Source: Escherichia coli | GTDB lineage: Bacteria; Pseudomonadota; Gammaproteobacteria; Enterobacterales; Enterobacteriaceae | Reading direction: 5' to 3' (one strand) | DNA length: 26,302 nucleotides | NCBI RefSeq assembly: GCF_003334305.1 | Contig: NZ_QOWS01000036.1 | Shown here: piece by piece, positions 6,330 to 6,374 of the stretch | How positions within the stretch are numbered: the first letter of the stretch is position 1 | Layout of the letters: every line of letters begins with the position of its first letter | The notes under the pieces: generated by a model | The model's database searches: none | What the model saw: only the letters and a program-made list of their open reading frames with translations | Told to the model about the DNA's origin: nothing | Made by a program: the position numbers and the translations under genes

Positions 6330-6345
6330 TAGTCCACTCTTCTAA

Positions 6346-6368
6346 GCCCGGTCTTGCCGGGCGTTTTT
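6346..6368 (+). terminator. short GC hairpin plus T-tract between fmt and rsmB (possible weak terminator or attenuator)
   Basis: GCCCGG-TCTT-GCCGGGC followed by GTTTTT, seen in sequence. Function inferred only. Confidence 0.3.
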
Positions 6369-6374
6369 ATACTT

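Follow-up and report, generated by a model that had tools for sequence, protein, structure and literature searches.

The fmt–rsmB junction and its hairpin

The window, the whole stretch of 26,302 nucleotides of DNA that was analysed, belongs to the Escherichia coli chromosome and covers the dprA / def-fmt-rsmB-trkA-mscL region. Each of the 5,426 complete E. coli genomes contains a match to positions 5900–6800, with 100% identity in many cases, and the gene order in an identical E. coli record is dprA (−), def, fmt, rsmB, trkA and mscL (+), and arfA (−). Genes were called from the list of open reading frames (ORFs) and the RefSeq annotation of this identical record, and coordinates were converted by the relation window = MG1655 − 3428832, taken from published Term-seq entries. 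The features around the junction are the following.

4783–4812 (+): def promoter-like site, CTGTCA-18-TAGAAT, from a promoter scan; feeds the operon
4817 (+): published transcription start site (TSS; MG1655 3433649), just 3′ of the promoter-like site (SMRT-Cappable-seq, PMC6131387 Suppl. Data 1)
4858–5367 (+): def, peptide deformylase (ORF list and RefSeq); first gene of the hairpin-ended transcript
5382–6329 (+): fmt, methionyl-tRNA formyltransferase, with a GTG start and a TGA stop at 6327–6329
6310–6315 (+): CCGGGC in fmt, Pro-Gly codons, same as the 3′ arm of the hairpin; a possible E. coli-specific competitor
6330–6345 (+): spacer of 16 nt from the fmt stop to the hairpin, column identity 0.34–0.87 in the 79-sequence alignment
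6346–6362 (+): hairpin of the probable terminator, GCCCGGU-CUU-GCCGGGC, from folding and conservation
6363–6372 (+): U-rich tail GUUUUUAUAC with a T5 run at 6364–6368; most other genera have one more TTTTTA unit
6367 (+): mapped RNA 3′ end at the fourth U, MG1655 3435199 (Term-seq, PMC7815308 Suppl. files 1 and 3; SMRT-Cappable-seq, PMC6131387 Suppl. Data 1)
6375–7664 (+): rsmB, 16S rRNA m5C967 methyltransferase, reached by read-through; its ATG lies 12 nt past the stem
7686–9062 (+): trkA, last gene of the read-through transcripts

The fmt stop (6329) and the rsmB ATG (6375) are separated by a 45-nt gap (6330–6374), which reads TAGTCCACTCTTCTAA GCCCGGTCTTGCCGGGC GTTTTTATACTT. An in-frame TTG at 6354, the mechanical ORF start of rsmB, was rejected as its start codon: the annotation uses the ATG at 6375, and the region upstream of this ATG shows 1-nt indels and is conserved only at the hairpin and the T-tract.

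Folding of the junction pairs 6346–6352 (GCCCGGU) with 6356–6362 (GCCGGGC), which gives six G-C pairs and a closing U-G pair around a 3-nt loop; an equivalent fold of the same hairpin has six pairs and a 5-nt loop, UCUUG. An earlier note on this DNA had placed a hairpin with a T-run in the 45-nt gap, and both are there, but the split that it gave, GCCCGG-TCTT-GCCGGGC, makes unequal arms (6+4+7) and does not hold. The folding energy of 6340–6372 is −13.7 kcal/mol (z = −3.7), a value as low as which was obtained in none of 200 shuffles, and the hairpin is retained in the minimum free energy (MFE) structure of an 81-nt context. A stable G+C-rich hairpin, as expected of an intrinsic terminator, is present at the junction. 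The stem is followed by G, TTTTT (6364–6368) and ATAC. The U-tract of intrinsic terminators is typically 7–9 nt long; the U-rich tract directly 3′ of this stem is suboptimal, with GUUUUUAU containing 6 U in 8 nt and a run of 5, and UUUUUAUUUUU takes the place of GUUUUUAU in other genera. The d'Aubenton-Carafa score, calculated with our own implementation and meaningful in relative terms only, is about −1 in E. coli, at the threshold, and +3 to +8 in most other genera.

A hairpin of this kind might have arisen by chance and have no function. A loose terminator scan, which detects the fmt–rsmB hairpin, found 10 sites in 6 kb where 6.2 ± 2.6 would be expected; such matches are therefore common, as a chance origin would have it. 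The strict scan required 6 perfect pairs (at least 5 of them G-C), a loop of 3–8 nt and a T-rich tail in which at least 4 T are consecutive. Counting both strands, it gave 7 matches over the entire window, whereas 100 dinucleotide shuffles gave 0.14 ± 0.37, so that the fmt–rsmB feature clearly exceeds what chance would produce. In addition, the stem and T-tract are conserved in 80 species while the neighbouring bases drift, and published maps place RNA 3′ ends here. Conservation and mapped ends already contradict the chance reading, to which practically no credence can be given.

Two further kinds of element were considered and rejected. A dispersed repeat, such as the REP/BIME-like palindromes, would occur in many copies, and this element is single-copy: a 151-nt junction query finds one place in the median E. 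coli genome, and the hairpin occurs once in the window. A bidirectional terminator does not fit either, as the minus-strand hairpin is followed by TTAGAAGAG, which has no T-run, and there is no convergent gene. A scan of 4000–10000 against Rfam gave no match at 6300–6400 even at E ≤ 1.

The strict scan also found four other sites in the window, at 10749–10764, 26161–26178, 19436–19453 (−) and 13732–13750 (−). The first two score on both strands, and 10749–10764 coincides with the published rplQ 3′ end at 3439590 (window 10758). Directly after trkA, at 9064–9091, there is a 12-bp A/T-rich hairpin that is terminator-like by prediction; the curated Term-seq lists contain no 3′ end at this hairpin. 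On the plus strand, the 3′ end listed next is 3438498 (window 9666), which lies 3′ of mscL in antisense orientation to arfA.

RNA 3′ ends and read-through at the junction

The earlier note had interpreted the hairpin as a possible partial terminator, for which 3′-end sequencing should reveal RNA ends at about 6370 instead of uniform coverage. Such ends have already been published. In the Term-seq study of Adams (2021), a curated "primary" fmt 3′ end is located at MG1655 3435199 (+), that is, at window position 6367, and its printed 61-nt flanking sequence is identical to the window (PMC7815308). It lies 8 nt before the rsmB ATG and 5 nt past the stem (PMC7815308 Suppl. file 3). Read values are 2260.75 (mean) in LB at OD 0.4 and 753.39 in M63, and the LB OD 2.0 list contains no 3435199 end, where the growth condition of each entry is assigned by its position in the file and not by the adjacent header (PMC7815308). 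The end is not in the LB 0.4 sheet of Suppl. file 3 of that paper, and no Rho or intrinsic-terminator score is published for it; the bicyclomycin dataset has no Rho-termination region between 3435000 and 3435599. Term-seq also lists plus-strand 3′ ends inside def, at 3433762 (window 4930, LB 0.4) and 3433856 (window 5024, M63) (PMC7815308).

The same nucleotide was found by an independent long-read method. In rich medium, SMRT-Cappable-seq (Yan 2018) defined a b3287/b3288 (def, fmt) transcript from the TSS at 3433649 to a transcription termination site (TTS) at 3435199, classified as "novelTTS"; in M9, the 3435199 TTS was not called (PMC6131387). The two published tables thus place an in vivo RNA 3′ end inside the U-tract. 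The def-fmt row gives 460 reads at the TSS, of which 31 end at the TTS, 8 end within 50 nt and 357 pass, with a median extension of 1456.5 nt (PMC6131387). These counts require that two columns of PMC6131387 Suppl. Data 1 be exchanged, since the forward-strand rows swap "passing-through TTS" and "within 50 bp downstream" with respect to the header. The swap was checked on the hpt row (105 / 13 / 1 / 82), in which 82/96 = 85% is the read-through stated for hpt in PMC6131387. As the hpt row gives 85% only in the swapped order, 357 must be the passing reads and 8 those ending within 50 nt, and any reuse of Suppl. Data 1 calls for this correction. The counts correspond to about 90% read-through and about 8–10% termination at the fmt–rsmB site in rich medium.

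Together with the end at 6367, this read-through supports the proposal of a partial terminator. The note had further suggested that the element sets the ratio of def-fmt to rsmB-trkA transcript, and this stands in a reduced form: the rsmB-trkA transcript would be trimmed by about a tenth in K-12, and no large ratio results. According to RegulonDB, as quoted by Yan et al. (2018), def-fmt and rsmB form two distinct operons; Suppl. Data 3 of that study extends both to def-fmt-rsmB-trkA (PMC6131387). The def-fmt-rsmB-trkA reads agree with literature statements of a single operon, and separate RegulonDB operons can coexist with one long-read transcript because the terminator at their boundary stops no more than roughly one transcript in ten.

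Neither Term-seq nor SMRT-Cappable-seq can tell release by the polymerase from trimming by 3′-exonucleases back to a hairpin. The hairpin might therefore act only as an exonuclease barrier, with all polymerases passing and the 6367 ends produced by cutting and trimming of longer transcripts. The ends at 6367 represent a small minority of the transcripts, the U-tract is weak, and many of the 3′ ends in PMC7815308 are regarded by its authors as probable processing products, all of which would suit a barrier. A barrier needs no U-tract, yet the T-tract is 92–100% conserved and remains linked to the hairpin where the gap lengthens. The end lies 5 nt past the stem, in the U-tract, and not at the foot of the stem, and few SMRT-Cappable-seq TTSs fall at known RNase III sites (PMC6131387). 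A barrier without termination is thus considered quite unlikely.

The hairpin and T-run between fmt and rsmB very probably constitute an intrinsic (Rho-independent) terminator, a weak one, within the def-fmt-rsmB-trkA unit. According to this terminator model, RNA polymerase would start at the def promoter and transcribe the G+C-rich hairpin 16 nt past the fmt stop. A minority of polymerases would release their RNA on the short U-tract, at the fourth U (6367), presumably by the intrinsic mechanism and not by way of trimming, to yield a hairpin-ended def-fmt mRNA about 1.55 kb long, and about 90% would go on into rsmB and trkA. The 3′ hairpin may, in addition, stabilise the def-fmt mRNA.

Conservation of the stem and variation of the tail

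A single RsmB query against species-representative genomes yielded 80 loci, all from Enterobacteriaceae, and the junctions were compared by MAFFT alignment (79 sequences) and by a regular-expression search for the hairpin (80 species). Across the 79 aligned junctions, the GCCCGG and CCGGGC columns are 100% identical and the first T-block is 92–100% identical, against 46–76% for the loop and 34–87% for the spacer past the fmt stop; the mean major-codon fraction at synonymous sites of fmt is 0.60. The six G-C pairs are essentially invariant among 77 distinct sequences; one species (locus L081) has lost a base of the 3′ arm by a 1-nt deletion. The evidence at these pairs is therefore conservation without covariation. 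Covariation is seen at the loop-closing pair (AU 16, UG 14, UA 13, CG 4, unpaired 29), where the observed number of double changes was reached in 0 of 500 shuffles. In the more distant Franconibacter and Dryocola, the helix is kept through G-U changes.

Downstream of the stem, 62 of the 80 species carry a tail of the form N-TTTTT-N followed by at least 4 T, usually TTTTTATTTTT; the tail of Salmonella is TTTTTATTTT. The distance from the stem to the ATG is 17–18 nt in 75 of the 80 species. Franconibacter and Dryocola have a longer gap: the hairpin and T-tract still adjoin the fmt stop, at a distance of 37–38 nt from the rsmB ATG. As the T-tract stays with the hairpin when the ATG moves, it belongs to the hairpin, which speaks for a part in termination, and not to the rsmB start.

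The position of the T-tract bears on a different reading, in which the element would serve mainly the translation of rsmB, with an A/U-rich unstructured tract after a fixed hairpin as a ribosome landing site and termination as an incidental effect. This idea arises because rsmB lacks a Shine-Dalgarno sequence: none is recognisable within 15 nt of the ATG in E. coli (TTTTTATACTTATG), and other genera have at most a weak GG at −6/−5. The uniform spacing of hairpin and ATG in 75 of the 80 species would also suit such a role, as would the A-rich beginning of the rsmB coding sequence (ATGAAAAAACAA); the ATG itself is preceded by TTTTTATACTT. Against this role, the T-tract of Franconibacter and Dryocola lies with the hairpin, 37–38 nt from the ATG. 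Furthermore, Escherichia tolerates a 6-nt change in the spacing, and RNA 3′ ends are made at the site. As the main function of the element, rsmB translation is very improbable; judged from these sequence features, it could be a second role of the terminator rather than a rival to it.

The tail varies within Escherichia. K-12, the window, E. albertii and one further Escherichia are without one TTTTTA unit, so that the tail reads (G/A)TTTTTATAC and the ATG lies 12 nt past the stem, and E. whittamii keeps the long tail, ATTTTTATTTTT, as in most other genera. In approximately 1,026 of 5,426 E. coli genomes (about 19%), the junction falls in the 90–95% identity band. Among the matches listed for this band, all five, CFT073 included, have a junction that is 5–6 nt longer, and two genomes of the band, CFT073 and Z1323HEC0355, contain a degraded tract, ATCTTTATATTTATAC, with a U-A closing pair. 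In the Escherichia lineage, the tract has thus either been shortened by one T-block or been degraded. The low termination efficiency in K-12 would fit the shortened U-tract.

Several other features of the junction were observed in these collections. Many genera have a 6-bp hairpin, ACCGTC...GACGGT, across the fmt stop (E. coli 6317–6336), which is lost in E. coli because its 3′ arm reads GATAGT. A contig labelled Chryseobacterium sp. 18061 contains an Enterobacteriaceae-type fmt-rsmB locus with the same hairpin and an RsmB 83% identical to that of E. coli; this locus is probably a contamination or comes from a mislabelled assembly. The E. coli collection holds 5,428 places that match the fmt–rsmB junction, one of them on a plasmid, and at least one genome therefore has a second, plasmid-borne copy.

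Upstream structures and relation to known terminators

The CCGGGC in fmt (6310–6315) could pair with the 5′ arm of the hairpin and act as an antiterminator, in which case the element would be a regulated attenuator and a ribosome at the end of fmt would decide between the two structures. The alternative pairing is the MFE structure of 6300–6352 (−14.0 kcal/mol) and can form before the 3′ arm is made, and the terminator stem has an equilibrium probability between 0.30 and 1.0, according to the 5′ context. The published lists also differ between conditions, the TTS being called in rich medium and not in M9 and the Term-seq end being listed for exponential and not for stationary phase, and read-through depends on conditions at other sites (PMC6131387). 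Absence from a list may, however, reflect expression level or thresholds and is not a measure of read-through, and a terminator hairpin with a 3-nt loop should form faster than a helix that closes a 30-nt loop. The upstream CCGGGC occurs in only 12 of the 80 species, where it tracks the choice of Pro-Gly codons, and is therefore not a conserved antiterminator that would exclude the terminator hairpin. Regulated attenuation is accordingly very unlikely, and a weak intrinsic terminator is preferred.

A second structure lies near the beginning of fmt. A 10-bp hairpin, GCAGCGCGTC-ATCTC-GACGCGCTGT, at 5427–5451 (+) covers fmt codons 16–24 and is followed by UGUCUUCUGG. Term-seq ends are located 3–5 nt past it, at 5454 and 5456, with 5484 and 1599 reads, more than at the fmt–rsmB site, and are given a Rho score of 0.96 ("No") and an intrinsic-terminator score of 4.96 (PMC7815308). 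Essentially all 79 Enterobacteriaceae species retain this hairpin. By synonymous-site conservation, the best two of 200 windows of 9 codons in fmt are those that begin at codon 15 (0.90) and codon 16 (0.86), against a gene mean of 0.60, and the hairpin is taken as a selected RNA structure within the coding region. It may mark the end of a def-only transcript or be a protective structure, and it is more notable than the fmt–rsmB terminator. The two elements might form a tunable two-step "staircase" that sets def > fmt > rsmB-trkA and responds to the position of the ribosome at the start and the end of fmt, with the second step retuned in Escherichia by shortening or degradation of the U-tract; this combined scheme is regarded as unlikely.

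Canonical E. coli intrinsic terminators share with the fmt–rsmB element a G+C-rich stem of 6–7 bp, a short loop, a U-run, a location after a stop codon and a 3′ end in the U-tract. The element differs from them in having only 5 consecutive U, a G between the stem and the U-run and no upstream A-tract, the first two of which count against a strong terminator. Termination of about 10% is, in addition, far lower than at terminators that end operons. The T1 terminator of rpsU-dnaG-rpoD is a leaky operon-internal terminator that makes nested transcripts. The leaky operon-internal terminators prs-dauA and dapA-bamC likewise lie between genes of one unit, where part of the transcripts end and the rest continue, in "staircase" variants (PMC6131387). 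Within this group, the read-through of about 90% at the fmt–rsmB site lies towards the top of the range, and its candidate antiterminator is not a conserved one.

The "novelTTS" of 3433649–3435199 (PMC6131387) and the "primary fmt 3′ end" (PMC7815308) are the same nucleotide as the site in the window. In these papers, the site is a table row only, and its mechanism, efficiency and comparison with other species are not discussed. The supplements of TERMITe 2025 contain no fmt or rsmB entry, and a literature search on an fmt/rsmB terminator, with the original 1992–93 fms-fmt papers outside its scope, found only general statements on a def-fmt-rsmB(-trkA) operon. As the exact site is given in two public tables, the terminator is already known; the comparative details are new but minor, and their importance beyond a tidy annotation is small. 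With a stem that is essentially invariant and a U-tract that has been weakened in two ways in Escherichia, the fmt–rsmB junction is a small example of drift or retuning of terminator strength in an essential, translation-related operon.
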